In this document: positions 4,067 to 51,302 of the stretch, one piece after another
Layout of the letters: every line of letters starts with the position of its first letter
Numbering within the stretch: position 1 is the first letter of the stretch
Source of the DNA: Escherichia coli
Lineage (GTDB): Bacteria > Pseudomonadota > Gammaproteobacteria > Enterobacterales > Enterobacteriaceae
DNA length: 64,000 nucleotides
Assembly (NCBI RefSeq): GCF_013122565.1
Contig: NZ_CP053258.1
Direction: 5' to 3' (one strand)
Made by a program: the position numbers and the translations under genes
The notes under the pieces: generated by a model
The model's database searches: none
Seen by the model: the letters and a program-made list of their open reading frames with translations, nothing else
Told to the model about the DNA's origin: nothing

Positions 4067-4456
4067 GTTGTGTAACCTGTTGTTAATTACATCCGATCTC
4101 ACAGCGTGGGGCATGGATGGGGCAAACTCACTCTATTTCTGGTTTAAAATGGATACCTGATCATGAACGTTTTCTGCCATCCACGCTCCGTAACGCGATA
4201 ACCCCCTGAATATCAGAGTGTCTCATTTGACACATCACCACGTCGGATGTTGTTACGACCACAGACGCAACAGTAACCTCTGGATAATTTAATCTTTGTT
4301 GATGTTTTTATTCATATTCCGGGCTAGGGAAATAATCAGGCATAATTGTGTCACTGGAATAGAGGTTTCTTGTGGCGCATGTGGAAGGAGCGTCTACTAT
4401 TGTCTAATAGAGATTTCTTATTACGCAGTTTTGTTCATCACTAATCTCCAGGTTTA

Positions 4457-5125
4457 TCAAACAGGTTGAATTAACTCCGCGCCCTGGTTTTTAACATTAC
4501 CCACCGCGCGCGATACCGGGTGCCAGGTGAACTGGTTTGCTGACACACAACCACTGGTAGCGATTTCTGAGGCTTCTTTACCGCCAATATCTTGCCGCAT
4601 CCATTCCCGCGCAGCTTCTGGCGACAGAACCAGAGGGCGGCGGTCATGAATATCTACCAGACCCTGGTCTGCTGCTGCAGTGACGATCAAAAATCCTTCG
4701 GCTTCGTCACCACGCTCGAACGGTGTGCTACCTATCGCGGCCATAAAAATAGGTTGTCCATCAGCACGATAGATAAAAAAAGGCTGTTTTTTGTCGCCTT
4801 CTTTTTTCCACTCAAACCAGCCATCGGCAAAACAGATTGCCCGACCATGTTGCCAGAGCGGCTTAAACATGCGACTGGTTGCGGCAGTTTCTACGCGGGC
4901 GTTAATCAGCGGCGGTTTATCCCACCATCCGGGAGCATATCCCCAGAAAACCGGATCCAGATGAAGGTGTTCGTCACGTTCACTGAGCAGAAGGACTTTG
5001 GTTCCCGGCGCGACGTTGTATCTGCCAATGGGTTCGGGATCATAGGGAATATCGCGTTCAATATCTTCCGCGAGAAGCGCAAGGTAATCTTCACGCGTTT
5101 GGGATTGGGCAAAGCGTCCACACAT
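4457..5125 (-). CDS. yedK: SOS-response associated peptidase (SRAP/HMCES family, abasic-site processing) YedK
   Basis: ORF 4457..5218 trimmed to the MCGRFAQSQTREDYLALL... start at 5123..5125, 222 aa; N-terminal Cys2 is the hallmark of SRAP proteins. Confidence 0.88.
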   Translation of the reverse strand: MCGRFAQSQTREDYLALLAEDIERDIPYDPEPIGRYNVAPGTKVLLLSERDEHLHLDPVFWGYAPGWWDKPPLINARVETAATSRMFKPLWQHGRAICFADGWFEWKKEGDKKQPFFIYRADGQPIFMAAIGSTPFERGDEAEGFLIVTAAADQGLVDIHDRRPLVLSPEAAREWMRQDIGGKEASEIATSGCVSANQFTWHPVSRAVGNVKNQGAELIQPV

Positions 5126-5233
5126 AGAAACCTCCTGAGAGCACACTGAAAAGAATAGGAGAGGGGGCGGGTAAAATCTATGTGGTACAGAGGCAACGAT
5201 ATTCCCGCTGTGGGCCACAGCGGGAATGAGGGA

Positions 5234-5467
5234 TTACTTCTGAATTAAATAACGAATGGTCGGCCCGTCTTGCTGAATATCCAGCACCGTATAGCCGTGA
5301 TTACGCGCATCCAGTGGAATATTATTGATCGACTGCGGACAGTCGCTCACCACTTCCAGGATTTCCCCTTTTTTTAACTGCGGCATCGCCTCAAGAGTTG
5401 CGACTGCCGGATAAGGGCAGGGTTCACCCACCATATCAAGGCGGTAATCAGGAACGATATTTTTCAT
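5234..5467 (-). CDS. yedF: TusA-like sulfurtransferase-fold protein YedF
   Basis: ORF 5234..5467, 77 aa, contains the CPxP motif (EPCPYPAV) typical of TusA-like proteins; overlaps yedE start by 4 nt. Confidence 0.88.
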   Translation of the reverse strand: MKNIVPDYRLDMVGEPCPYPAVATLEAMPQLKKGEILEVVSDCPQSINNIPLDARNHGYTVLDIQQDGPTIRYLIQK

Positions 5468-6669
5468 GCGATCTCCTTAGCAGTCTGCGGTGCCGCACGG
5501 CGGAAGAAGCGTTTTTCCCAGCCGATAATCAACATCAGCGCAGCAAACAACAGCAAATATGTCACCAGCAGGCCACCCATCGGGCCAAAGGTTTTCAGCA
5601 GGTTAATTTTGTCCCAGTCGGTGGCCAGCGCCGGAGCGAAATCATCCCAGTAATACGCCAGAATCGTTGAGCCGATCACGTTGCCCAGACCGACCCACCA
5701 GTAGTGCACCTGGCCTTCTACCGCGCGGTACATCCAGCCGGTTTCGCAGCCGCCTGCCAGCACGATGCCAAAACCAAACAGTAAACCACCAATTACCGCG
5801 TTTGGTCCTGCCCACATGATTTTGGGTTCAACACCTAACTGTACGTAACTGAAGATCCCGATGGCACTCACCGCCATACCGATAATGATTGCTTTCGCCA
5901 TATGGGTACGTCCGGTGATCCACATATCGCGGAACGCCGAAGTAAAGCAGATTTGCGCACGTTCAATCAGTAAACCAAAGCCGACGCCAAACAGCATTGC
6001 CAGCCCCAGTTTTGGTTGGTTCATCGCCGTGAGCAGCGCCCAGCCCTGCATACCGAAAAAGACCAGCATCCCGAGACGAAAACGACGCCGCGCCTGATCC
6101 GGTTTTTGCGTCAGCGGTGAGGCGGCAGAAACTTTCTGCATTTTCACGGGAATACGGAAGATGGGCAGCAGGGTAAAGCGCGCGCCAAACCATGAACCAA
6201 TGGCAGTGGCGATGGCAAAGAACCAGGCATGCAGCGAGAACTGAGGAATACCGGTAAAGAACGCCGCCAGGTTACAGCCCATTGCCAGACGCGCGCCAAA
6301 ACCAGCGATAATACCGCCAATGATGGCCTGCATAATGCGGATACGGCTGCGTGGCATGCGCAGTTTGACATTGTTGGCCCACAGCGCTGCGGCAAAGCAG
6401 CCGCCAAACATACCGAGGATCATCATCCCGTCGATGCGGGTTAATGGCGATCCTTCCAGATGGATAATTTTAAAGTAACCCCACTCTTCAGCATGGACGC
6501 CGAACAGCTGCAGGAGCTGGCCGCCCCAACGGGTAAATTCACCCGTGACAGCCCAAAAGGTGCCAGTGATGCCAAAATAGTAAGTGGAGAGAATACCCGC
6601 CGCGATGACCGCGGGGATGGGCGCCCAGAATTTAATCAACCAGGCGTGTTTGAATTGCTGCCATGACAT
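5464..6669 (-). CDS. yedE: YedE/YeeE-family inner membrane transporter (selenium/sulfur-related)
   Basis: ORF 5464..6669, 401 aa, highly hydrophobic multi-TM protein; matches YedE in length and N-terminus; co-operonic with yedF. Confidence 0.88.
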   Translation of the reverse strand: MSWQQFKHAWLIKFWAPIPAVIAAGILSTYYFGITGTFWAVTGEFTRWGGQLLQLFGVHAEEWGYFKIIHLEGSPLTRIDGMMILGMFGGCFAAALWANNVKLRMPRSRIRIMQAIIGGIIAGFGARLAMGCNLAAFFTGIPQFSLHAWFFAIATAIGSWFGARFTLLPIFRIPVKMQKVSAASPLTQKPDQARRRFRLGMLVFFGMQGWALLTAMNQPKLGLAMLFGVGFGLLIERAQICFTSAFRDMWITGRTHMAKAIIIGMAVSAIGIFSYVQLGVEPKIMWAGPNAVIGGLLFGFGIVLAGGCETGWMYRAVEGQVHYWWVGLGNVIGSTILAYYWDDFAPALATDWDKINLLKTFGPMGGLLVTYLLLFAALMLIIGWEKRFFRRAAPQTAKEIA

Positions 6670-6855
6670 GAATGTAGCCTCTGAACTCAGAAGGTTTGAA
6701 ACAAGAGTCGCGAATCATACATCAAGCAAATTTATTTTCGGGGTAATAATTCACAAAAATAATAGTTAGATCAAATTTCTCGCTGAACCTGGAAAGGCTG
6801 GCGACATCAGGGCTTTAATGCCACAATCCTCTTTTCTTCTCATGCAGGACGAATG

Positions 6856-7269
6856 ATGAAAAAACTCGCAATTGCAGGCGCGCTCATGTTGCTGGCGGGC
6901 TGTGCCGAAGTCGAAAACTATAACAATGTCGTGAAAACCCCCGCGCCGGACTGGCTGGCGGGCTACTGGCAGACCAAAGGGCCGCAACGTGCGCTGGTCA
7001 GTCCGGAAGCGATAGGCAGCCTGATTGTCACTAAAGCGGGCGATACCCTGGATTGCCGTCAGTGGCAGCGGGTGATTGCCGTGCCGGGTAAGTTGACATT
7101 GATGTCTGATGATCTCACTAACGTTACCGTAAAACGTGAGCTGTACGAGGTTGAGCGTGACGGTAACACCATTGAGTACGATGGTATGACGATGGAGCGT
7201 GTGGATCGCCCGACAGCAGAGTGTGCCGCCGCGCTGGATAAAGCGCCGTTACCGACGCCACTGCCGTAA
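6856..7269 (+). CDS. yedD: Predicted lipoprotein YedD
   Basis: ORF 6853..7269 (MMKKLAIAGALMLLAGCAEV...), signal peptide plus LAGC lipobox; K-12 YedD is 137 aa, so start at the second ATG (6856) is likely. Confidence 0.85.
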   Translation: MKKLAIAGALMLLAGCAEVENYNNVVKTPAPDWLAGYWQTKGPQRALVSPEAIGSLIVTKAGDTLDCRQWQRVIAVPGKLTLMSDDLTNVTVKRELYEVERDGNTIEYDGMTMERVDRPTAECAAALDKAPLPTPLP

Positions 7270-7302
7270 TGAAATCTCCCCGGCTTGCTGCCGGGGATGA
7301 AT

Positions 7303-8790
7303 TTAAATCACCTCTTCGATAACCCACACGCTAACGCTGCCGCCGTTGCAAAAGAAGGTCGCTTCGCCGTTTTCGTCGGTTACTACACTCTCTTGCCGGT
7401 TCCCAAGAAAATCACGCCAGGTTTTATTGCCGTAATTCTCTCCTAAATGAATGGTTTTTTCGCCATCATCTCCGTTCGACATGACCACCACGCAGCCGGG
7501 ATATTCGTCGGTGCCACTGCGGCTAAAGGCAATGCAGTTCGGATGGTCGAAAAATAACGTCTGTACACCGTGGGCGAAACGCTGACGGGCGAGAATTAAC
7601 TCATCAAGTTGTTCGATTATTGGCATATCTATCGGATAGGTTTGCCCGTCACCGCCGACATCTTCGTAATGTGCACCGTAGAGATCCGGATAGAACACCG
7701 AAGGAACGCCATTTTCCCGCAACAAAATTAAGGCATATGCCAGCGGTTTAAACCACGGTTCGACCGGCGCTTCGAGGGCTTGCAACGGTTGGGTGTCGTG
7801 GTTGGCAACGAGCGTCACGGCGTGGAAAGGATCGGCTTCCACTAATGTACCCGTGAAAATCTGCGTCATGTCGTAGTCGCGCCCCATGCGCGATGCTTCA
7901 TGGAATTTCATCTGCAGCGGTGCATCGAACAGCATGGTTTTGCCTTCCACCTGATCAATATACGTTTGCAGTTTATCGACTTCATGCGACCAGTACTCTG
8001 CCACAATAAACAGCGGCTTTGGCGCAACTTCCTGTACGTGTTCGATCCACTCTTTATAAAACCACGCCGGTATATGTTTGACCGCATCAAGACGAAAACC
8101 GTCGCATTGTGTTTGTTCCATCACCCAGCGCGCCCAGTATTTAATCTCTTCCGTCACGGCATGATTGCGGAAATCGATATTCTCACCCATCAGATAATCG
8201 AAATTACCGAGTTCATCATCAACCTGATCGTTCCAGCCTTCGCCGGTGTAGTCGTTAACAATTTTAAATATGCCATCTTCATCAGGATTTTCGATATGGT
8301 CGATACCGCTAAAACATTTGAAATCCCAGATAAACTGCGAGTATTGCCCGGCACGAGCGGGGAAGGTGTAACGCGTCCAGCCTTCGCACTCAATGATTTC
8401 TTCGTCAATTTGCGTACGGTCATCAGCATTTACACGCTGCACGCGAATAGCTTCTTTTTCATCCGCGCCCATTTTGTGGTTGACTACCACATCCAACAGC
8501 ACCGCAATGTCATTACGTTTCAGAGCGTCAATGGCGGCCAGCAGTTGTGCTTTATCGCCATATTTAGTAGGGATGCTGCCTTTCTGATCAAACTCGCCTA
8601 AATCAAATAAATCATAGGAGTCGTAGCCGACCGAATACCCGCCCGATGCGCCTTTATAGGCGGGCGGCAACCAGACCATATTGATACCAATATCATTAAA
8701 ACCGTCGGCGCGCTCGGCCAGTTCAGGCCAGAGCTTACCGCCTTCCGGGTAATACCAGTGAAAACATTGTAACAGCGTGGGATTACGCAT
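7303..8790 (-). CDS. amyA: Cytoplasmic alpha-amylase AmyA
   Basis: ORF 7303..8790, 495 aa, [21 protein letters not shown]...; GH13 motifs (e.g. GFRLDAVKH) visible; length matches AmyA. Confidence 0.95.
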
Positions 8791-8867
8791 TCTTCGACTC
8801 CATTCAAGGGGAACATTAGAAGCGTAGCCGTAATCAGATTATTCGCGAGCCATTAGCTCGTTAAGAT

Positions 8868-9233
8868 TCACGAGAAGTTATCTTGCGGAGCCAGCACAAA
8901 GCCGCCCTGATCGCCATAGGCACTTAACACCGATTTTTGCACCGATGACTGACCGACCAGTTTCGCCAGTTCATTCATCCGAATCTGTAATAACTGCTTT
9001 ACCTTGCTTTCGTTATCGAGAATCAGGCGCAGCATCGGGCGGAGCTGCTCCTGCATCGTGGTGGACGGGTCAATCTCATCAGTCAGATGTGCAATCTCCT
9101 GCACCGCATTCACATACGCCATTTCGCTGGCGATGAGTTCGTCCCATTGTTCTTCCGTTGCCAGGCGTAACATGAGCTGGCTTTTTTCGACGAGTTGTTG
9201 CCAGGCGAAATACAAATGCGGTGCGTGGTTCAT
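8868..9233 (-). CDS. fliT: Flagellar chaperone / anti-FlhDC factor FliT
   Basis: ORF 8868..9233, 121 aa; last gene of the fliD-fliS-fliT operon; matches FliT. Confidence 0.9.
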
Positions 9234-9643
9234 CAGACTGGGTCCTGAATCAAAGAAGGGGAGAGTAACGACTCTTTCCAGGCATCGGCAATATTGCGCA
9301 TTAATGCTTCCACTTCTTCGACTGCGGAGACATCGTTGCGTAAATTGGCTTGCAGCAAACGCCTGACCATATAGCTATAAAGAGCAATCAAGTTTTGGGT
9401 TAATTCGTCTTTGCTCTCTTCATCAAGACTCACCCGAAGTCCGTTCTCAATGATGTTGATCGCTTTTGACAAAGAGACGCCTTTGCCTTGCTGATTGTTG
9501 TCCTGCATAAACAGGCGCGCTCTAACCAGTGCGCTCAGCACTCCATCAAATAGCATGGTGACCAGCTGCTGCTGGCTGGCGCTCATTACGGCGCTTTCGA
9601 CGCCAATTTGTGCATAGGCCTGGGTGCCTTTTGCCGCGTACAT
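9233..9643 (-). CDS. fliS: Flagellin-specific chaperone FliS
   Basis: ORF 9233..9643, 136 aa, [34 protein letters not shown]...; matches FliS. Confidence 0.92.
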
Positions 9644-9658
9644 AGTTTCTCCTGAAGA

Positions 9659-11074
9659 TTATTTCGAGTTGCTATTTGAGGTGTCGAACTGCTGTGTCAG
9701 ATAGCTACTGGTGGAGTTAAGCGAGTTCATTAACACATCTAATTGGGTGAACTGGGCTTTATAGCGCGTCATTAAGGTATCGATACGCTCACTGGCTGCG
9801 TTGTACTGGTCGGTCAAATTATTAAGCGTTTTGCTGACGCCATCTTTTGCGGCCTGGATTATCCCGGTGGAAGAGAGCCAACTGGTCAGGTTGCTACTAA
9901 TGCCGGTGGTTACCCCTGTACTTTTACCGTCACCTATAAACATTTCACCGATGCCAGCGGCATCTTTTTTTAGCGCCGTTTGCAGTTTGTCAGTCGCGAT
10001 TTCCAGCTTGCCGGTACTGGCATCGCTGGTAATGCCAATCTGTGCCAGCGTTTTATAGTTTGAACTGCTGTGAGTATTGGCGAGCAAGGTTTTAAGCTGA
10101 GTCTGGATGGTACGCAGTGTGGAGTCACCGAGTAATGCGCCATTACTGGAGTCCTGACTTTCTGCTCCGGCATCGACAGCGGTGTATTTGGTTAAGCTAC
10201 TGAATGTATCCTGCAATGTGTTATAGGCATCCACCCATGCTTTGACCGCATTTTCAGCTTTGGATGTGTCTTTATTGATGGTCAGTGTCTGATTACCGGT
10301 GGTGACGTCATTCAGGTTGAGTGTGATATCTTCCAGCGCGTCGCTGATAGTGTTACTGCTGTTTTCAATCTCAACGTTATTGACTGTCAGTTTGGCGTTT
10401 TGCGCGGTGACGCTTTCAATCATGCCATTGCTGCTATCACCCGACGTTCCGTTGTAACCCATAAAACTTTCCAGGGCGCTGTCGCCGCTGACGCTAAGTT
10501 TCATAGCGTTATCGTTGCCCGTATCGTTAGCGGTGATGGACAGACGATATTCGCCGTTTCTCACATTGATGATACTGGCGCTGACACCAGCTTTGGCGTT
10601 GTTAATGGCATCGCGAATGCCGGAAAGTGACGAGTTAGCTGCGCTGATATCAATCGTGACCGGATCTTTACCGCCGCCTTGCTGGATGGTCAGTACGCTA
10701 TCGCTGGTGGCGATGGCAGCTTTACTGTCTTTTTGACTAATTTTTGTGGTCAGCGTTTGTGCCTGCGCCAGTTGGCTAACGCTAATGGTGTATTTCCCGG
10801 CAATCGCGCTGCCCGTGGTGGTGGCGCTGAAAGCCGATGAACTGCTGGTGGTTGAAGTGGCGGTAAATAAATCGGCTTTATTCAGTGCTGTGTTGGCTGT
10901 CTGGAAACTCTCTAGTGCACTTTTCAGCGTCCCGTAGGCGCTCAGTTTCGCGGTGTAAGAGCTTTGCTGTTTTGATATCGGCGTCAGGGTAGATTTTTCT
11001 GCCGCCTCCAGACTGTCAAGGATGCTGCTTAAATCCAGCCCCGACCCAACCCCAAGCGTTGAAATACTAGCCAT
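9659..11074 (-). CDS. fliD: Flagellar filament cap protein FliD (variant allele, 471 aa)
   Basis: ORF 9659..11074, MASISTLGVGSGLDLSSILDS...; conserved termini, divergent in the middle relative to K-12 FliD (468 aa by recollection). Confidence 0.9.
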   Translation of the reverse strand: MASISTLGVGSGLDLSSILDSLEAAEKSTLTPISKQQSSYTAKLSAYGTLKSALESFQTANTALNKADLFTATSTTSSSSAFSATTTGSAIAGKYTISVSQLAQAQTLTTKISQKDSKAAIATSDSVLTIQQGGGKDPVTIDISAANSSLSGIRDAINNAKAGVSASIINVRNGEYRLSITANDTGNDNAMKLSVSGDSALESFMGYNGTSGDSSNGMIESVTAQNAKLTVNNVEIENSSNTISDALEDITLNLNDVTTGNQTLTINKDTSKAENAVKAWVDAYNTLQDTFSSLTKYTAVDAGAESQDSSNGALLGDSTLRTIQTQLKTLLANTHSSSNYKTLAQIGITSDASTGKLEIATDKLQTALKKDAAGIGEMFIGDGKSTGVTTGISSNLTSWLSSTGIIQAAKDGVSKTLNNLTDQYNAASERIDTLMTRYKAQFTQLDVLMNSLNSTSSYLTQQFDTSNSNSK

Positions 11075-11116
11075 ATAAATTCCTTAATCATGCGACGTAT
11101 AGAACGAATACCGGGG

Positions 11117-11143
11117 TTATCGGCGTAAGCGGGGCAAAGTTTA
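11117..11143 (-). promoter_or_regulatory. sigma-28 (FliA) class 3 promoter for fliDST
   Basis: + strand reads ttatcggc-N11-aaagttta, i.e. on the minus strand TAAACTTT-N11-GCCGATAA, a near-perfect match to the sigma-28 consensus TAAAGTTT-N11-GCCGATAA. Confidence 0.7.
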
Positions 11144-11216
11144 CGATTTATTTTTTGGCTTAATGACACGAACAGCAACGAGGAAGGGGAGTATTTCGAC
11201 CGCTAGAAAAAAATTC

Positions 11217-11243
11217 TAAAGGTTGTGAGTGACCAGACGATAA
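11217..11243 (+). promoter_or_regulatory. sigma-28 (FliA) class 3 promoter for fliC
   Basis: taaaggtt-N11-gacgataa upstream of fliC; close to the sigma-28 consensus. Confidence 0.65.
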
Positions 11244-11319
11244 CAGGGTTGACGGCGACGAAGCCGAAGGGTGGAAGCCCAATACTTAAACCGTAGACTT
11301 GAAAACAGGAAAATGAATC

Positions 11320-12663
11320 ATGGCACAAGTCATTAATACCAACAGCCTCTCGCTGATCACTCAGAACAACATCAACAAAAACCAGTCTGCGCTGTCGACT
11401 TCTATCGAGCGCCTCTCTTCTGGTCTGCGCATTAACAGCGCTAAAGATGACGCTGCGGGCCAGGCGATTGCTAACCGCTTCACTTCTAACATCAAAGGTC
11501 TGACTCAGGCCGCACGTAACGCCAACGACGGTATCTCTCTGGCGCAGACCACTGAAGGCGCACTGTCTGAAATCAACAACAACTTGCAGCGTGTTCGTGA
11601 ACTGACCGTTCAGGCCACTACCGGTACTAACTCTGATTCTGACCTGTCTTCAATCCAGGACGAAATCAAATCCCGTCTCGATGAAATTGACCGCGTATCC
11701 GGTCAGACTCAGTTCAACGGCGTGAACGTACTGGCAAAAGATGGCTCGATGAAAATTCAGGTCGGTGCAAATGATGGTCAGACAATCAGCATTGATTTGC
11801 AGAAGATTGATTCTTCTACTTTAGGGTTAAATGGTTTTTCTGTTTCCAAAAATGCAGTATCTGTTGGTGATGCTATTACTCAATTGCCTGGCGAGACGGC
11901 AGCCGATGCACCAGTAACCATCAAGTTTGATGATTCAGTAAAAACTGATTTAAAACTGACCGATGCTTCAGGGTTAAGTCTGCATAACCTCAAAGATGAA
12001 AATGGTAATTTAACTAACCAGTATGTTGTACAGAATGGCGGAAAATCTTACGCTGCTACAGTCGCTGCCAATGGTAATGTTACGCTGAACAAAGCAAATG
12101 TAACCTACAGCGATGTCGCAAACGGTATTGATACCGCAACGCAGTCAGGCCAGTTAGTTCAGGTTGGTGCAGATTCTACCGGTACGCCAAAAGCATTCGT
12201 GTCTGTCCAAGGTAAAAGCTTTGGCATTGATGACGCCGCCTTGAAGAATAACACTGGTGATGCTACCGCTACTCCACCGGGAGCATCTGGGACAACAGTT
12301 GTCGCAGCGTCAATTCATCTGAGTACGGGCAAAAACTCTGTAGACGCTGATGTAACGGCTTCCACTGAATTCACAGGTGCTTCAACCAACGATCCACTGA
12401 CTCTGCTGGACAAAGCTATCGCATCTGTTGATAAATTCCGTTCTTCTTTGGGGGCGGTACAGAACCGTCTGAGCTCCGCTGTAACCAACCTGAACAACAC
12501 CACCACCAACCTGTCTGAAGCGCAGTCCCGTATTCAGGACGCCGACTATGCGACCGAAGTGTCCAACATGTCGAAAGCGCAGATTATCCAGCAGGCAGGT
12601 AACTCCGTGCTGTCCAAAGCTAACCAGGTACCGCAGCAGGTTCTGTCTCTGCTGCAGGGTTAA
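11320..12663 (+). CDS. fliC: Flagellin FliC (H-antigen), 447 aa, non-K-12 serotype
   Basis: ORF 11320..12663; conserved N-terminal (MAQVINTNSLSLITQNNINKNQSALSTSIERLSSGLRINSAKDDAAGQAIANRF...) and C-terminal (...QNRLSSAVTNLNNTTTNLSEAQSRIQDADYATEVSNMSKAQIIQQAGNSVLSKANQVPQQVLSLLQG) flagellin domains flank a distinct central region; K-12 FliC is 498 aa by recollection. Confidence 0.92.
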   Translation: MAQVINTNSLSLITQNNINKNQSALSTSIERLSSGLRINSAKDDAAGQAIANRFTSNIKGLTQAARNANDGISLAQTTEGALSEINNNLQRVRELTVQATTGTNSDSDLSSIQDEIKSRLDEIDRVSGQTQFNGVNVLAKDGSMKIQVGANDGQTISIDLQKIDSSTLGLNGFSVSKNAVSVGDAITQLPGETAADAPVTIKFDDSVKTDLKLTDASGLSLHNLKDENGNLTNQYVVQNGGKSYAATVAANGNVTLNKANVTYSDVANGIDTATQSGQLVQVGADSTGTPKAFVSVQGKSFGIDDAALKNNTGDATATPPGASGTTVVAASIHLSTGKNSVDADVTASTEFTGASTNDPLTLLDKAIASVDKFRSSLGAVQNRLSSAVTNLNNTTTNLSEAQSRIQDADYATEVSNMSKAQIIQQAGNSVLSKANQVPQQVLSLLQG

Positions 12664-46955: not shown

Positions 46956-47600
46956 ATGATGCAACCATCAATCAAACCTGCTGACGAGCATTCAGCTGGC
47001 GATATCATTGCGCGCATCGGTAGCCTGACGCGTATGCTGCGCGACAGTTTGCGGGAACTGGGACTGGATCAGGCCATTGCCGAAGCGGCGGAAGCCATCC
47101 CCGATGCGCGCGATCGTTTGTACTATGTTGTGCAGATGACCGCCCAGGCTGCGGAGCGGGCGCTGAACAGTGTTGAGGCGTCACAACCGCATCAGGATCA
47201 AATGGAGAAATCAGCAAAAGCGTTAACCCAACGTTGGGATGACTGGTTTGCCGATCCGATTGACCTTGCCGACGCCCGTGAACTGGTAACAGATACGCGG
47301 CAATTTCTGGCAGATGTACCCGGACATACCAGCTTTACTAACGCGCAACTGCTGGAAATCATGATGGCACAGGATTTTCAGGATCTCACCGGGCAGGTTA
47401 TTAAGCGGATGATGGATGTCATTCAGGAGATCGAACGTCAGTTGCTGATGGTGTTGTTGGAAAACATCCCGGAACAGGAGTCGCGTCCAAAACGTGAAAA
47501 CCAGAGTTTGCTTAATGGACCTCAGGTCGATACCAGCAAAGCTGGTGTGGTAGCCAGTCAGGATCAGGTGGACGATTTGTTGGATAGTCTTGGATTTTGA
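46956..47600 (+). CDS. cheZ: CheY-P phosphatase CheZ
   Basis: ORF 46926..47600 trimmed to [24 protein letters not shown]... at 46956, 214 aa. Confidence 0.92.
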
Positions 47601-47618
47601 TTTGTATTGCCTGAACTT

Positions 47619-47643
47619 CGGCCTGCGCGATGATGCCAGGCCG
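47619..47643. terminator. Hairpin between convergent cheZ and the inserted nucleotidyltransferase gene
   Basis: Inverted repeat cggcctg...caggccg 19 nt after the cheZ stop; no strong T-run, so weak. Confidence 0.35.
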
Positions 47644-47687
47644 ATAGCAGGGTGGCGAGTATCGTTCAGGGAGTACGTGGAGGATGG

Positions 47688-48440
47688 TTATTTGTAGTTT
47701 GATAATTTTAGATCAGCGAAGCGTGTTTGTTGCGCCAGTAAATTTATCAACGCATTAAATTGTGAACGAGAAAATGACGATGACTGGTAGTGCAGTACAT
47801 CGTAATGATGCCAAACTTCATAACGTTTTTTCGTCAGTTCATGGTGCAAGAAATGACAGAGTTCCGGACCTAAACTCTTTACCTGCTTAGTAAAAATAGT
47901 GCGTAAAATCTTCGTTACCGAACCGCTTGGATTGGGGTTAGTATGAAGAACAAGTTCAAGATGTCTGCGATTTAAGTCGGTCAAATAATTATCTTTACTG
48001 ATAATTTTTTCACTACGTAGATCATAGAGCACGGCATCCCAACTCATTAGCGTAGTGTTTAACAGACTTGATTCATCCTCACAAAATATAAGTTTTTCCC
48101 GAAATGCCCATGTCTCATTGAGGTTCCAGATATCAAATTCGAAGTCGTGATAACGAAAACGGATCCCACCGAACTTATTAAAACGCAGTTGTTTAACGGG
48201 CAATTCAGCCAATGTCCGGAAGAGTTCCTCACGGGAGCGACCGATGACGATATCAAGGTCTGAAGAAAATCCTTCGACGCCAAACAAGCCTAAGTCACGC
48301 ACCATCCCGCCAAAAATCCAGGCCGGACAGGAACAGGCCAGAGTATCAAGTAATACTCTGGCTTTCTTATGCTCATCACTAAGCGTAAAAAAATCGGCGA
48401 TACGCTGTTCAAGCTGTTGGGTGTTTGAGACCACATTCAT
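47688..48440 (-). CDS. Pol-beta-superfamily nucleotidyltransferase (CCA/MNT/SMODS-like fold), function unknown; downstream gene of inserted operon
   Basis: ORF 47688..48440, 250 aa; nucleotidyltransferase signature ...AWIFGGMVRDLGLFGVEGFSSDLDIVIG... (hG[GS]-x9-13-DhDh) with a third acidic residue in ...HDFEFDIWNL...; start overlaps upstream gene by 32 nt; no equivalent gene between cheZ and flhB in K-12 as I recall; AT-rich. Confidence 0.7.
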   Translation of the reverse strand: MNVVSNTQQLEQRIADFFTLSDEHKKARVLLDTLACSCPAWIFGGMVRDLGLFGVEGFSSDLDIVIGRSREELFRTLAELPVKQLRFNKFGGIRFRYHDFEFDIWNLNETWAFREKLIFCEDESSLLNTTLMSWDAVLYDLRSEKIISKDNYLTDLNRRHLELVLHTNPNPSGSVTKILRTIFTKQVKSLGPELCHFLHHELTKKRYEVWHHYDVLHYQSSSFSRSQFNALINLLAQQTRFADLKLSNYK

Positions 48441-49917
48441 ACAGTGATTTTAGCTCATCGTGAAGGCGCATTAAATAACTATCCGTCATGCCTGAGATTG
48501 CGTCGGTAAGCAACTGCGCTTCTTTATAAAGAATAGGGAGTGTATTGGCGGGATCTTCAAACACACGGCGATAATTTTCAGAGATTGTCCCGTAAGCATA
48601 GCGACCAAAGGGAGTATCCGATAGGTATTCTTCACGAGAAACAAAAAGGTTATCTGCAGACGCGGACTCGCGTTCTCCGTCTCGTTCTTTCTTTGTTTTG
48701 TGTCCATGGATGCCAATCCAGAGCATATCCATCAAGTTAGTAATGTAATTAGACCCCCTAAGTTCCAGTTGCAAGACTGAACGATGAAGGTAGCCTCGTG
48801 TTCGGTCGAACATTTTCAGGGCAGTGCAGAGAGCGTGACCTTTGCTTTGCGAGATTAAATCTTTGAACGGGCAGTCACGCTGCATCAGCGTGGGTAATTG
48901 TTCGCGAAAGGCTTCAACTACGGCATTAATCAATGCACTGGTGGCATACACTCTGAACATTTGCATACTGAGTTCATTAATTTCTGCCGGTGAAAGTGCA
49001 TTTCTTTGCTCTTTCCAGGCGTCATTTTTGGCCTCTACAGCTTTAATAACATTTTCAATTACATCGTTCGACTCGGATTGTGACATCAAAAAATCACGCA
49101 AATCCTGGTATGAGGCAAATCCTTTCTTGATGGTATCTTCTGCGTCAAGCACAGAGTAGGCAATATCGTCGCAAGCTTCCATTATCCAGGTAAATGGGTG
49201 GCGGCAACCGGCATCATTACCTGGTACGCCAAGGCCCGTTTGCTGCCAGACATCCATGACAACCTCATGCTCAGAATAGAAAAAACCGTGTTTTTTCCAA
49301 TGTTTGTCCGATGAATATGAAGCTCGGGGATATTTGATCAGTGCAGCCAGCGTGGCATAGGTCAGATTCAGACCAAAGTTATCGTTAATAATTTGTAATT
49401 TGGTAACCAGGCGCAGGGTTTGTGAGTTTCCATCAAATTGCAGAAAGTCGTTATATATTTCGCTGTTTACTTCTTTATCAAGAAGGCCTGGAAGATTTTT
49501 ATTAAACCATGCGCGCATCGCTGCTTCACCTTGATGCCCAAATGGTGGATTACCGAGATCGTGTGCCAGTCCGATCGCTGCTAACAGAGCAGGAACGTCG
49601 CGTTCAACGACAATCCCCGTGGGTATTTCGCCAAAGATGTGTTCCTTCATCTCGAAAGCGAGCCTCATTCCTATTCCGCGAGCAAAGTTTGCTACTTCGT
49701 GAGAATGAGTCAGCCTCGTCCGTATACTGTCATTTTGATCTAACGGGAAAACTTGTGTTTTATCCGCCAGCCGACGAGTTGGCGCAGCAAAAAGTAATCG
49801 GTCGTAATCCCGCTCGATCTCTTGTCTTCCGCGAGCAAGGGGATGTAAAAATTCTATGCTGGTTTTTTTTAGATTATCTTTTCGACGGTTGCAGTTAAGC
49901 AATTGTTGCCATTCCAT
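48409..49917 (-). CDS. Dgt-family dNTP (dGTP) triphosphohydrolase paralogue (HD domain); upstream gene of inserted operon
   Basis: ORF 48409..49917, 502 aa; Dgt hallmark motifs: DKTQVFPLDQNDSIRTRLTHSHEV (HD histidine), GLAHDLGNPPFGHQGE (HD aspartate), FDGNSQTLRLV, HPFTWIMEACDDIAYSVLDAEDTIKKG, LTDAISGMTDSYL; RBS aagg 7-8 nt before ATG; AT-rich. Confidence 0.82.
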   Translation of the reverse strand: MEWQQLLNCNRRKDNLKKTSIEFLHPLARGRQEIERDYDRLLFAAPTRRLADKTQVFPLDQNDSIRTRLTHSHEVANFARGIGMRLAFEMKEHIFGEIPTGIVVERDVPALLAAIGLAHDLGNPPFGHQGEAAMRAWFNKNLPGLLDKEVNSEIYNDFLQFDGNSQTLRLVTKLQIINDNFGLNLTYATLAALIKYPRASYSSDKHWKKHGFFYSEHEVVMDVWQQTGLGVPGNDAGCRHPFTWIMEACDDIAYSVLDAEDTIKKGFASYQDLRDFLMSQSESNDVIENVIKAVEAKNDAWKEQRNALSPAEINELSMQMFRVYATSALINAVVEAFREQLPTLMQRDCPFKDLISQSKGHALCTALKMFDRTRGYLHRSVLQLELRGSNYITNLMDMLWIGIHGHKTKKERDGERESASADNLFVSREEYLSDTPFGRYAYGTISENYRRVFEDPANTLPILYKEAQLLTDAISGMTDSYLMRLHDELKSLYECGLKHPTA

Positions 49918-50153
49918 TTGATCGCCTTTGTAATAATTTAATTATTAGCAAACTAACAGAGAGACGGTGGGCGATTCTATAGGCTAAATGGCTAAATATC
50001 AGAACTGGAAAATGGTTCGCAAAACGTTCTGCAACTGAACCTATTTTTTGCATAAACGTCCTAAATCCCGCCTGTTTTGCCCCTTACTCAAACCATTGAA
50101 CGCTTTGCGCTCTGGCATCATTTACGCTTAATACTCTTTCCAGGATTGGCGAC

Positions 50154-51302
50154 GTGTCTGACGAGAGCGACGACAAAACAGAAGCCCCCACACCTCACCG
50201 ACTAGAAAAAGCGCGGGAAGAGGGGCAAATCCCGCGTTCCCGTGAACTGACCTCGCTGCTGATTTTGCTGGTGGGCGTGTGTGTTATCTGGTTTGGCGGT
50301 GTGTCGCTGGCCCGTAGATTGTCGGGCATGCTCTCCGCTGGGCTGCATTTTGATCACAGTATTATCAATGACCCGAATCTGATCCTCGGGCAAATTATTC
50401 TGCTGATCAGAGAAGCCATGCTGGCGCTGCTGCCGCTGATTAGCGGCGTGGTGCTGGTGGCGCTCATTTCTCCGGTCATGCTGGGAGGGCTGGTATTTAG
50501 CGGAAAATCCTTGCAGCCGAAGTTTTCCAAACTCAACCCGCTACCGGGCATAAAACGGATGTTCTCGGCACAGACTGGCGCGGAGTTGCTTAAAGCAATT
50601 TTGAAAACCATCCTGGTTGGCAGCGTGACGGGGTTTTTTCTCTGGCATCACTGGCCGCAGATGATGCGCTTAATGGCCGAGTCTCCGATTACCGCCATGG
50701 GTAATGCGATGGATTTGGTAGGGCTATGCGCACTGCTGGTGGTGCTTGGTGTCATTCCAATGGTGGGATTTGACGTCTTTTTCCAAATCTTCAGCCACCT
50801 GAAAAAGCTGCGAATGTCGCGGCAGGATATTCGTGATGAGTTCAAACAAAGCGAAGGCGACCCCCATGTTAAAGGACGGATCCGTCAGATGCAGCGAGCT
50901 GCCGCACGGCGTCGGATGATGGCCGATGTGCCGAAAGCGGATGTCATTGTCAATAACCCGACCCACTATTCGGTAGCGTTGCAGTATGACGAAAACAAAA
51001 TGAGCGCACCGAAAGTGGTCGCTAAAGGTGCAGGGCTGGTCGCGCTGCGCATTCGTGAAATTGGCGCTGAAAATAACGTCCCGACGCTTGAAGCGCCGCC
51101 GCTGGCGCGAGCGCTGTATCGACATGCGGAGATTGGTCAACAAATCCCGGGTCAACTGTACGCCGCGGTGGCGGAAGTGCTGGCCTGGGTCTGGCAACTG
51201 AAACGCTGGCGTCTGGCTGGTGGACAGCGTCCTGTACAACCTACTCATCTTCCGGTGCCGGAAGCCCTGGATTTTATTAACGAGAAACCGACCCATGAGT
51301 AA
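50154..51302 (+). CDS. flhB: Flagellar type III export apparatus protein FlhB
   Basis: ORF 50154..51302 (GTG start), 382 aa, ..SDESDDKTEAPTPHRLEKAREEGQIPRSREL...; NPTH autocleavage motif present (VIVNNPTHYSVAL). Confidence 0.92.
   Translation: MSDESDDKTEAPTPHRLEKAREEGQIPRSRELTSLLILLVGVCVIWFGGVSLARRLSGMLSAGLHFDHSIINDPNLILGQIILLIREAMLALLPLISGVVLVALISPVMLGGLVFSGKSLQPKFSKLNPLPGIKRMFSAQTGAELLKAILKTILVGSVTGFFLWHHWPQMMRLMAESPITAMGNAMDLVGLCALLVVLGVIPMVGFDVFFQIFSHLKKLRMSRQDIRDEFKQSEGDPHVKGRIRQMQRAAARRRMMADVPKADVIVNNPTHYSVALQYDENKMSAPKVVAKGAGLVALRIREIGAENNVPTLEAPPLARALYRHAEIGQQIPGQLYAAVAEVLAWVWQLKRWRLAGGQRPVQPTHLPVPEALDFINEKPTHE

Follow-up and report, generated by a model that had tools for sequence, protein, structure and literature searches.

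Clover is a two-gene anti-phage system in which a dGTPase, CloA, is paired with a nucleotidyltransferase (NTase), CloB; the pairing was named and its mechanism solved by Yamaguchi et al. (2025; preprint, PMC12265719). According to that work CloA is inactive alone, is activated by dTTP, the level of which increases as T5-like phages alter the deoxynucleoside triphosphate (dNTP) pool, and is held off by 5′-triphosphothymidyl-3′5′-thymidine (p3diT) from CloB. Inactivation of CloB is toxic to the cell, with a more than 10,000-fold loss of fitness, and Clover homologues protect more than 10,000-fold against T5-like phages and only weakly against T7 (PMC12265719). Here we describe a pair of genes between cheZ and flhB in a 64,000-nt stretch of Escherichia coli DNA (contig NZ_CP053258.1; in the following, the window), which is highly likely to be a Clover system and, as far as can be told, a divergent allele that is as yet without a published test.

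The closest relative with solved structures is the Clover system of Salmonella enterica SA20044414 (SeCloA and SeCloB; PMC12265719), which lies in an island with an integrase and insertion sequences (IS), and whose CloA forms an octamer, the four-leaf-clover assembly of PDB entries 9p8s-9p8v. For SeCloA, the half-maximal concentrations are about 15 µM for activation by dTTP (EC50) and 7.6 µM for inhibition by p3diT (IC50). An operon of E. coli H5 with a length of 2,200 bp was also tested in the preprint. Stand-alone defensive dGTPases (Tal et al. 2022; SpdGTPase, 9p8w) are likewise HD-domain dGTPases that block phage replication by depletion of dGTP. SpdGTPase, however, is encoded by a single gene, is constitutively active in vitro and hexameric, and acts strongly against T7 and weakly against T5 (PMC12265719). 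Housekeeping Dgt of E. coli (4x9e/6oiy) belongs to the same superfamily and performs the same chemistry, the conversion of dGTP to deoxyguanosine and triphosphate. Hailong (HalB, oligodeoxyadenylate) and Panoptes/MISS (2′3′-c-di-AMP) use effectors and signals other than those of Clover, and their likeness to it, an NTase whose signal restrains the effector before infection (PMC12265719), is one of description and not of compared sequences or folds.

A Clover-type gene pair between cheZ and flhB

The cheZ gene ends at position 47600 of the window and flhB starts with a GTG codon at 50154. Between them, a scan for open reading frames (ORFs) found two genes on the minus strand: cloA (48409..49917, 502 aa) for an HD-domain dGTPase, the putative effector, and cloB (47688..48440, 250 aa) for an NTase of the Pol-beta superfamily, the putative regulator and by homology a p3diT synthase. 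The 3′ end of cloA and the 5′ end of cloB overlap by 32 nt (48409..48440, minus strand), as would suit an operon or translational coupling. The scan reproduced the gene coordinates, the overlap, the cheZ end and the flhB start of a preliminary description of the window, in which the pair had been proposed to be an accessory defence module with a Dgt-family dNTPase effector and an NTase, and had been suspected to be new. The homology to Clover supports the proposed module. Its novelty was not borne out, since the possibly unnamed pairing is Clover, named and mechanistically solved in 2025 (PMC12265719), and hence no new kind of system.

Every defining feature of Clover that can be tested in sequence was found in the window pair. 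The NTase gene comes directly after the dNTPase gene, both on the minus strand and with the 32-nt overlap, and the cloA and cloB genes of Salmonella and of E. coli H6 overlap as well (locus coordinates 9370-9416). The likeness to the Salmonella system also comprises the functional residues of CloA and the DxD...D motif of CloB. Whether the pair co-occurs elsewhere had been named as a check in the preliminary description: at 36 of 38 loci from species-representative genomes, cloB is directly preceded by a gene of the CloA type; at the other two, upstream DNA is scant or missing, or holds just a fragment.

CloA gave a PADLOC match to 'dGTPase' (5e-71) and scored 285 bits against TIGR01353, the general dGTP triphosphohydrolase subfamily (cut-off 152), in agreement with its earlier assignment to the Dgt family. 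It does not, however, appear as the plain dgt duplicate that the preliminary description had considered as a counter-case, since it scores under the cut-offs of the housekeeping Dgt equivalogs (NCBIfam NF003429 and NF002205; 271 versus 405 bits and 358 versus 439 bits). It is also under the cut-off of NCBIfam NF041026, antiphage_dGTPase (182 versus 400 bits). In the PDB, CloA matched four 8-chain entries named 'dNTP triphosphohydrolase' (9p8s-9p8v) with 636 bits (E=4.5e-190); among the other solved dGTPases the next best reached 184 bits, E. coli Dgt 133 bits and SpdGTPase (9p8w) 89 bits. Residue numbering rebuilt from the PDB alignment reproduces every residue named in PMC12265719, therefore the chains of 9p8s-9p8v are those of SeCloA. 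The data availability statement of the preprint gives the codes as 8P9S-8P9V. Overall, CloA is 66% identical to SeCloA.

All six metal-binding and catalytic residues are kept (H71, H119, D120, D250, H128 and E131, corresponding to SeCloA H69, H117, D118, D242, H126 and E129). By residue mapping, the HD motif H119-D120 is encoded at 49558..49563 and H128-Q-G-E131, with the catalytic HE dyad, at 49525..49536, both on the minus strand. The dTTP pocket is kept at 9 of 9 positions (R49, D63, Q175, K264, S446, N448, A473, T478 and Y481); Y481 is the counterpart of SeCloA Y452, mutation of which abolishes defence (PMC12265719). The p3diT pocket is kept at 9 of 10 positions (R31, R36, D39, R40, F43, N77, N184, Q319 and R322), with T25 of SeCloA replaced by L27 as the sole change. 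Among the kept residues are the three arginines of the published 3RA mutant and the base-reading residues Q319, D39 and N77. The arginine-rich part of this pocket, R31 to R40 (RQEIERDYDR; SeCloA R29, R34, D37 and R38, with roles taken from PMC12265719), is encoded at 49798..49827 (minus strand). Eight of the nine dGTP contacts named in PMC12265719 are kept as well; position 377 is E in both proteins, and thus in the deposited sequence, where the paper has Q377.

Compared to SeCloA, the window CloA has an extra helix/loop of ~20-24 aa and a 5-aa insertion. As seen from the alignment and an AlphaFold model, the former corresponds to a charged 24-residue segment (residues 410-433, KERDGERESASADNLFVSREEYLS; codons at 48619..48690, minus strand), which is missing from solved SeCloA and varies in length from 0 to ~27 residues across the family. 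In the model, calculated for the monomer with a predicted local distance difference test (pLDDT) score of 84, an extra helix (409-421) is predicted, followed by a loop that lies 13 residues before the dTTP-contacting S446/N448. Confidence is low only at residues 46-66, which correspond to the alpha3-alpha4 loop, and at 177-179, the alpha8-alpha9 switch; both parts move on ligand binding according to PMC12265719. For studies of structure and function, the variable helix next to the dTTP sensor suggests itself.

CloB had no match in PADLOC, in NCBIfam or among PDB sequences, and in Pfam only a sub-threshold match to the PolyA_pol head (PF01743, E=0.099). Of the checks proposed in the preliminary description, the PADLOC search therefore found the dGTPase half of the pair and not the small protein, and of the NTase match expected from searches with hidden Markov models there was only this sub-threshold one. 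Because no curated resource matched and no CloB structure is deposited, CloB was identified via the gene adjoining Salmonella CloA: the Salmonella CloA cluster (P0053) led to its contig, and this to the downstream gene. The gene downstream of SeCloA encodes DxD at D71/D73, exactly as published. The mutant of this motif is called D71A/D73A in the text and Figure 1 of PMC12265719 and D61A/D63A in the legend of its Figure 3. The 250-aa window CloB is 27 aa shorter than SeCloB (277 aa) and aligned to it end to end over 249 residues with 35% identity (E=9e-55), with D61/D63 in register with D71/D73. Across 35 CloB homologues G44-G45, R48-D49, S60-D61-x-D63 and D103 are invariant. CloB thereby has the [D/E]h[D/E]...h[D/E]h motif, with D103 as third carboxylate, and the Pol-beta NTase signature noted in the preliminary description of the small protein was confirmed. 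The codons of the catalytic D61-L-D63 lie at 48252..48260 and that of D103 at 48132-48134 (both minus strand).

The head-domain fold and the GGxxRD...DxD signature are shared by CloB and class-II CCA-adding/A-adding enzymes and poly(A) polymerase I (3h37, 4wby, 3aql; PF01743). CloB aligned to ~200 residues of CCA/poly(A) polymerase-type targets of 344-517 aa, at 12-17% identity. The class-II CCA-adding enzymes and poly(A) polymerase have tRNA/RNA-binding body and tail domains, whereas the short CloB is without them, and SeCloB makes a dinucleotide and does not extend tRNA (PMC12265719). CloB resembles the class-II CCA-adding fold and is no tRNA enzyme. The cGAS/DncV-like fold, known from the CD-NTases of CBASS (cyclic oligonucleotide-based anti-phage signalling systems), was not its closest structural relative.

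On these grounds we consider it highly probable that the cheZ-flhB pair is a Clover anti-phage system working by the published mechanism, which is transferred here by homology. CloA would be a dGTP triphosphohydrolase with no activity by itself, while CloB would continuously make p3diT. Bound in the arginine-rich pocket at the CloA dimer interface, p3diT would keep CloA off in healthy cells. Phages that inflate the dNTP pool, in the case of T5-like phages via Dmp and NrdAB, would raise dTTP, and dTTP in the adjacent allosteric pocket would exclude p3diT, order the alpha3-alpha4 loop and complete the active site. Destruction of dGTP would then stall phage DNA replication. For the window allele, we infer from its homologues which reactions are catalysed, what the signal is, how CloA assembles and which phages are affected; by analogy with the tested systems, T5-like phages are expected to be its main targets.

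Competing explanations

Several observations weigh against a plain transfer of the published mechanism. PADLOC 2023 and NCBIfam hold no model for CloB, which leaves it without confirmation by a curated model, and its product is assigned as p3diT by homology at an identity to SeCloB of only 35%. To the tRNA-Sec island allele of E. coli described below, very probably the tested one, the window CloA is only 64% and CloB only 41% identical. Three SeCloA residues are changed in the window CloA: T25 to L27, Q427, the partner of the N175 switch, to D455, and H263, which stacks at the tetramer interface, to Q271. Because of these changes and the extra ~20-24-residue helix/loop near the dTTP sensor, the activation threshold, the oligomeric state or the cue could differ. 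The same architecture of two enzymes could thus work with other chemistry, as a functional variant in which the signal of CloB is not p3diT or in which CloA responds to a cue other than dTTP or at another threshold. The identity of CloB to tested CloBs (35-41%), the helix/loop 13 residues before S446 and the three substitutions would be in line with this, and the far faster divergence of the Clover genes compared to their flanks would fit retuning in an arms race. On the other hand, all nine dTTP contacts and the base-specific p3diT contacts (Q319, D39, N77) are kept, and even the distant CloB of Xanthomonas still makes p3diT (PMC12265719), and we regard such a variant as unlikely.

The fitness loss on CloB inactivation (PMC12265719) also brings to mind a module that serves mainly for addiction, in the manner of a toxin-antitoxin pair: loss of cloB would unleash the toxicity of CloA, and phage defence would be incidental. 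The decayed copies agree with this in so far as they lost cloA or both genes and never cloB alone, in the few cases inspected. Addiction and defence do not exclude each other, however, the homologues do protect strongly against T5-like phages, and a chromosomal, non-mobile locus gains little from post-segregational killing; we judge this explanation very unlikely. Slightly less credence still is given to a dNTP-pool module with a housekeeping or regulon-linked role, in which a dgt paralogue and its partner would serve flagellar or chemotaxis physiology. It would explain the junction in many genera, as the pair keeps its place next to cheZ in eight or more enterobacterial genera or lineages, and it has the RefSeq gene name 'dgt' on its side. 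Housekeeping Dgt is a core gene, however, whereas the window cloA is carried by only 2% of E. coli genomes; CloA stays below the Dgt equivalog cut-offs, the GC content at third codon positions (GC3) of the pair is below that of the flanks in every host, and the genes are pseudogenised in Buttiauxella izardii and some E. coli. Moreover, close homologues elsewhere lie in integrase islands and are demonstrated defence systems, and the opposite flank of the pair is occupied by non-flagellar genes in Atlantibacter and Pluralibacter. Least probable in our view is a stand-alone defensive dGTPase of the type of Tal et al. (2022) with a functionally unrelated gene downstream. The PADLOC dGTPase match would allow it, yet the NCBIfam antiphage_dGTPase score is less than half of the cut-off and SpdGTPase falls far behind SeCloA in bit score, the overlap and the adjacency of cloA and cloB at nearly all loci argue for a two-gene unit, and the p3diT pocket is kept. 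With such an enzyme, CloA alone would be non-toxic and protective, and the published data on homologues are the opposite. A housekeeping or flagellar role, a stand-alone dGTPase and a pure addiction module are thus not supported by the data, and a Clover system remains our preferred reading.

Clover alleles and their distribution

The flanks of the locus matched in 5,386 of 5,426 complete E. coli genomes, and the insert was found in only 106 of them. In the empty sites listed, ~636-656 bp lie between the flank segments. The junction of E. coli appears to be either empty or occupied by Clover. A general defence hotspot with varied cargo was considered and is unsupported in E. coli, as the listed empty sites all have ~650 bp and only 2 of 5,388 places are split. 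The preliminary description had named presence of the pair in essentially all E. coli with host-like composition as the finding that would speak against it; neither the count nor the lower GC content agrees with that.

In RefSeq annotations of carriers (e.g., L001:2289-4518), cloA is the gene 'dgt' and cloB a 'hypothetical protein' (WP_022645816.1 and WP_001103661.1). The name 'dgt' invites confusion with the housekeeping gene. About 2% of complete E. coli genomes are carriers of a cheZ-flhB Clover allele that is annotated only in this form. Since the PADLOC library of 2023 detects the dGTPase half only, defence inventories built on such annotation would miss or mislabel this Clover.

A distant-mode search revealed that 8 complete E. 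coli genomes carry another Clover allele. In E. coli H6 (NZ_CP010170.1) the operon has exactly 2,200 bp, is of the Salmonella type and lies in an integrase island at tRNA-Sec (selC). Its proteins are 85% (CloA) and 85% (CloB) identical to the Salmonella pair and 64% and 41% identical to the window pair, so that the same species holds two very different alleles of the same type of system at different loci, in 106 genomes at cheZ-flhB and in 8 genomes in the tRNA-Sec island. Judging by operon length and strain naming, the E. coli H5 system is very probably this island allele. As the H6-type operon matches the length of the H5 operon and resembles the Salmonella pair, the systems tested in PMC12265719 are island alleles and the window allele is a different one; only the rarer of the two E. 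coli alleles seems to have been tested. Two other candidates for the H5 system were rejected. The window allele itself does not fit, because its coding sequences span 2,230 bp compared to 2,200 bp for H5 and H6. A metagenome contig with a 2,200-bp operon (L048) has neighbours unlike those in E. coli, and its matches among complete E. coli genomes stay at 72% or below.

The same block of genes adjoins Clover in the tRNA-Sec-side islands of E. coli H6 (L049:3434-7616) and Salmonella (L003:3489-7671). It encodes a PfkB kinase fused to a nucleoside 2-deoxyribosyltransferase-like domain, a QueC-like 7-cyano-7-deazaguanine synthase, two hypothetical proteins, an Ogg-like glycosylase and a Dam-like methylase. 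This block could be a deazaguanine-type DNA-modification or defence module that travels with Clover.

Many enterobacteria carry closer relatives of the window pair with the same location and orientation next to cheZ, namely Enterobacter, Cronobacter, Pseudescherichia, 'Escherichia sp. ESNIH1', Atlantibacter, Pluralibacter, Buttiauxella and two further assemblies. Most of these pairs lie between flhB and cheZ, while in Atlantibacter and Pluralibacter metabolic genes are on the other side. At four loci (L017, L018 from Atlantibacter, L020 from Pluralibacter and the metagenomic L048) cloA is adjoined by something other than flhB: a sugar ABC transporter, CoA-transferase/thiolase genes next to a LysR regulator, or an AraC regulator accompanied by genes for a major facilitator superfamily transporter and a rhamnosidase. 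The constant neighbour is therefore the 3′ end of the che operon and not the flhB promoter.

No mobility genes were seen near those loci for which genes had been called or ORFs checked (L004-L008, L018, L020, L048). In the window, the insert has no terminal direct or inverted repeats and the ORF scan found no integrase or transposase in it; the only tRNA genes of the window are ~25 kb away. A recently imported recombination tract was rejected, as the density of mismatches to K-12 is flat up to both junctions. The divergence from a carrier strain is 1.1% for the insert compared to 1.4-1.6% for the flanks. The claim of a 'horizontally acquired island' in the preliminary description thus stands only in part. 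Taken together, the lack of mobility genes and terminal repeats, the uniform divergence of the flanks, the similar divergence of the insert and the occupation of the same junction in other genera suggest an accessory locus that is old and stationary, and not an island gained recently.

The GC3 of Clover is below that of the flanks in every host, yet it follows the host (E. coli 0.41, Enterobacter 0.47-0.51, Cronobacter 0.61-0.63). Identity matrices of CloA/CloB correlate with those of CheZ/CheB (Mantel r=0.68-0.80, p=2e-4, 12 loci), a correlation that is partly driven by pairs within genera. In two Atlantibacter species CheZ/CheB are 99-100% identical, compared to 75% for CloA and 72% for CloB, and in two Enterobacter species CheZ/CheB are 98-99% identical, compared to 83-84% for the Clover proteins. 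We read this as long residence at the junction with rapid diversification or replacement of alleles through the conserved flanks, and not as clean vertical descent. Relatives of CloB were present on plasmids in 8 of 72,556 records, none of them enterobacterial, and none were found in phage records.

A wider scenario would be that a stationary, non-mobile Clover lineage was in place at the 3′ end of the che operon before the split of the enterobacterial genera and has since diversified rapidly there, or by allele replacement through the conserved flanks, and that the extra CloA helix and the diverged CloB retune threshold or signal relative to the island alleles. We put this forward tentatively and consider it rather doubtful as a whole. 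The Clover preprint (PMC12265719) makes no mention of cheZ, flagella or hotspots, and a literature search for cheZ/flhB defence hotspots gave nothing relevant. An allele other than those tested, and a cheZ-side clade without mobility genes, with fast divergence and decay in place, thus appear to be absent from that work, and the remaining interest lies in the stationary cross-genus locus and the differences between alleles. A defence locus at one housekeeping junction across many genera, without mobility genes, offers a useful natural series. Near-identical flanks around Clover proteins of 72-84% identity, together with at least one pseudogene formed in place, make it suited for studying the co-evolution of an allosterically gated immune enzyme with the synthase of its signal.

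Decay was seen in several hosts. In Buttiauxella izardii (L045:5740-6540) only Clover fragments are left between flhB and cheZ: cloA reads M-Q-W-S-Q-stop, with the stop at codon 6, pieces of cloA are joined to mid-cloB through internal deletions, and the cloB remnant has frameshifts. This remnant therefore indicates loss in place. In E. coli M25631H (L052) cloA is split into two ORFs with cloB intact. In E. coli E17 (L053) cloA is cut short by IS1, and all DNA from that point on is absent, including cloB, che, mot, flhDC and part of otsA. E. coli 1532MA (hit H50) carries IS1 inserted in the locus. In the damaged E. coli loci, of which few were inspected, cloA was affected and cloB was never lost alone. 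The split cloA beside an intact cloB in M25631H and the truncated cloA in E17 fit the view of CloA as the toxic partner.

Borders, composition and surroundings of the locus

Alignment to K-12 confirmed the earlier statement that K-12 lacks the two genes at this junction: K-12 represents the empty site, and the additional DNA of the window extends from 47615 to 50059 (47615..50059, 2,445 bp; the right edge is uncertain within 50050-50059). The insert stands in place of ~85-95 bp of REP-like (repetitive extragenic palindromic) sequence of K-12. This element of the empty site (L002:1216-1310; …GATAAGGCGATGACGCCGCATCCGAC…) is missing from the occupied site; therefore, occupied and empty states are alternative sequences rather than the product of a simple insertion. 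Only ~95-105 bp upstream of the flhB start codon (window 50050-50153) are common with K-12, and further upstream lies the cloA promoter region.

The GC content is 43.8% for the insert and 52.5% for the flanks, with 45.0% for cloA and 41.3% for cloB. GC3 is 0.41-0.42 for cloA/cloB versus 0.55-0.61 for cheZ/flhB. The low GC content of both genes reported in the preliminary description is thus correct in direction, while its hand-counted 35-42% was somewhat low for cloA.

A candidate sigma-70 promoter of cloAB (CTGATA-17-TAGAAT, 9 of 12 matches) is located at 49974..50002 on the minus strand, 57 nt upstream of the cloA start. Sigma-70-like sites in the region were no more numerous than in shuffled sequence, and this promoter is a candidate only. 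The segment 47598-47690 has a folding energy of −38 kcal/mol (z=−3.6). Folding of the region predicts a GC-rich hairpin at 47618..47644, between the convergent stop codons of cheZ and cloB, a possible bidirectional terminator without a U-tract. Promoter and terminator scans of the locus gave nothing above chance.

In a comparison of the whole window with K-12 the insert was the only extra DNA, besides the variable core of fliC and a small deletion near yedL. At 4325-4399, ~1.9 kb of K-12 sequence (yedL and a DUF5503 pseudogene) are missing. The adjoining stretch from yedK to fliC (4400-12383) is only 91% identical to K-12, and within it the fliC core (11812-12383) has no K-12 match, which points to a different H antigen.

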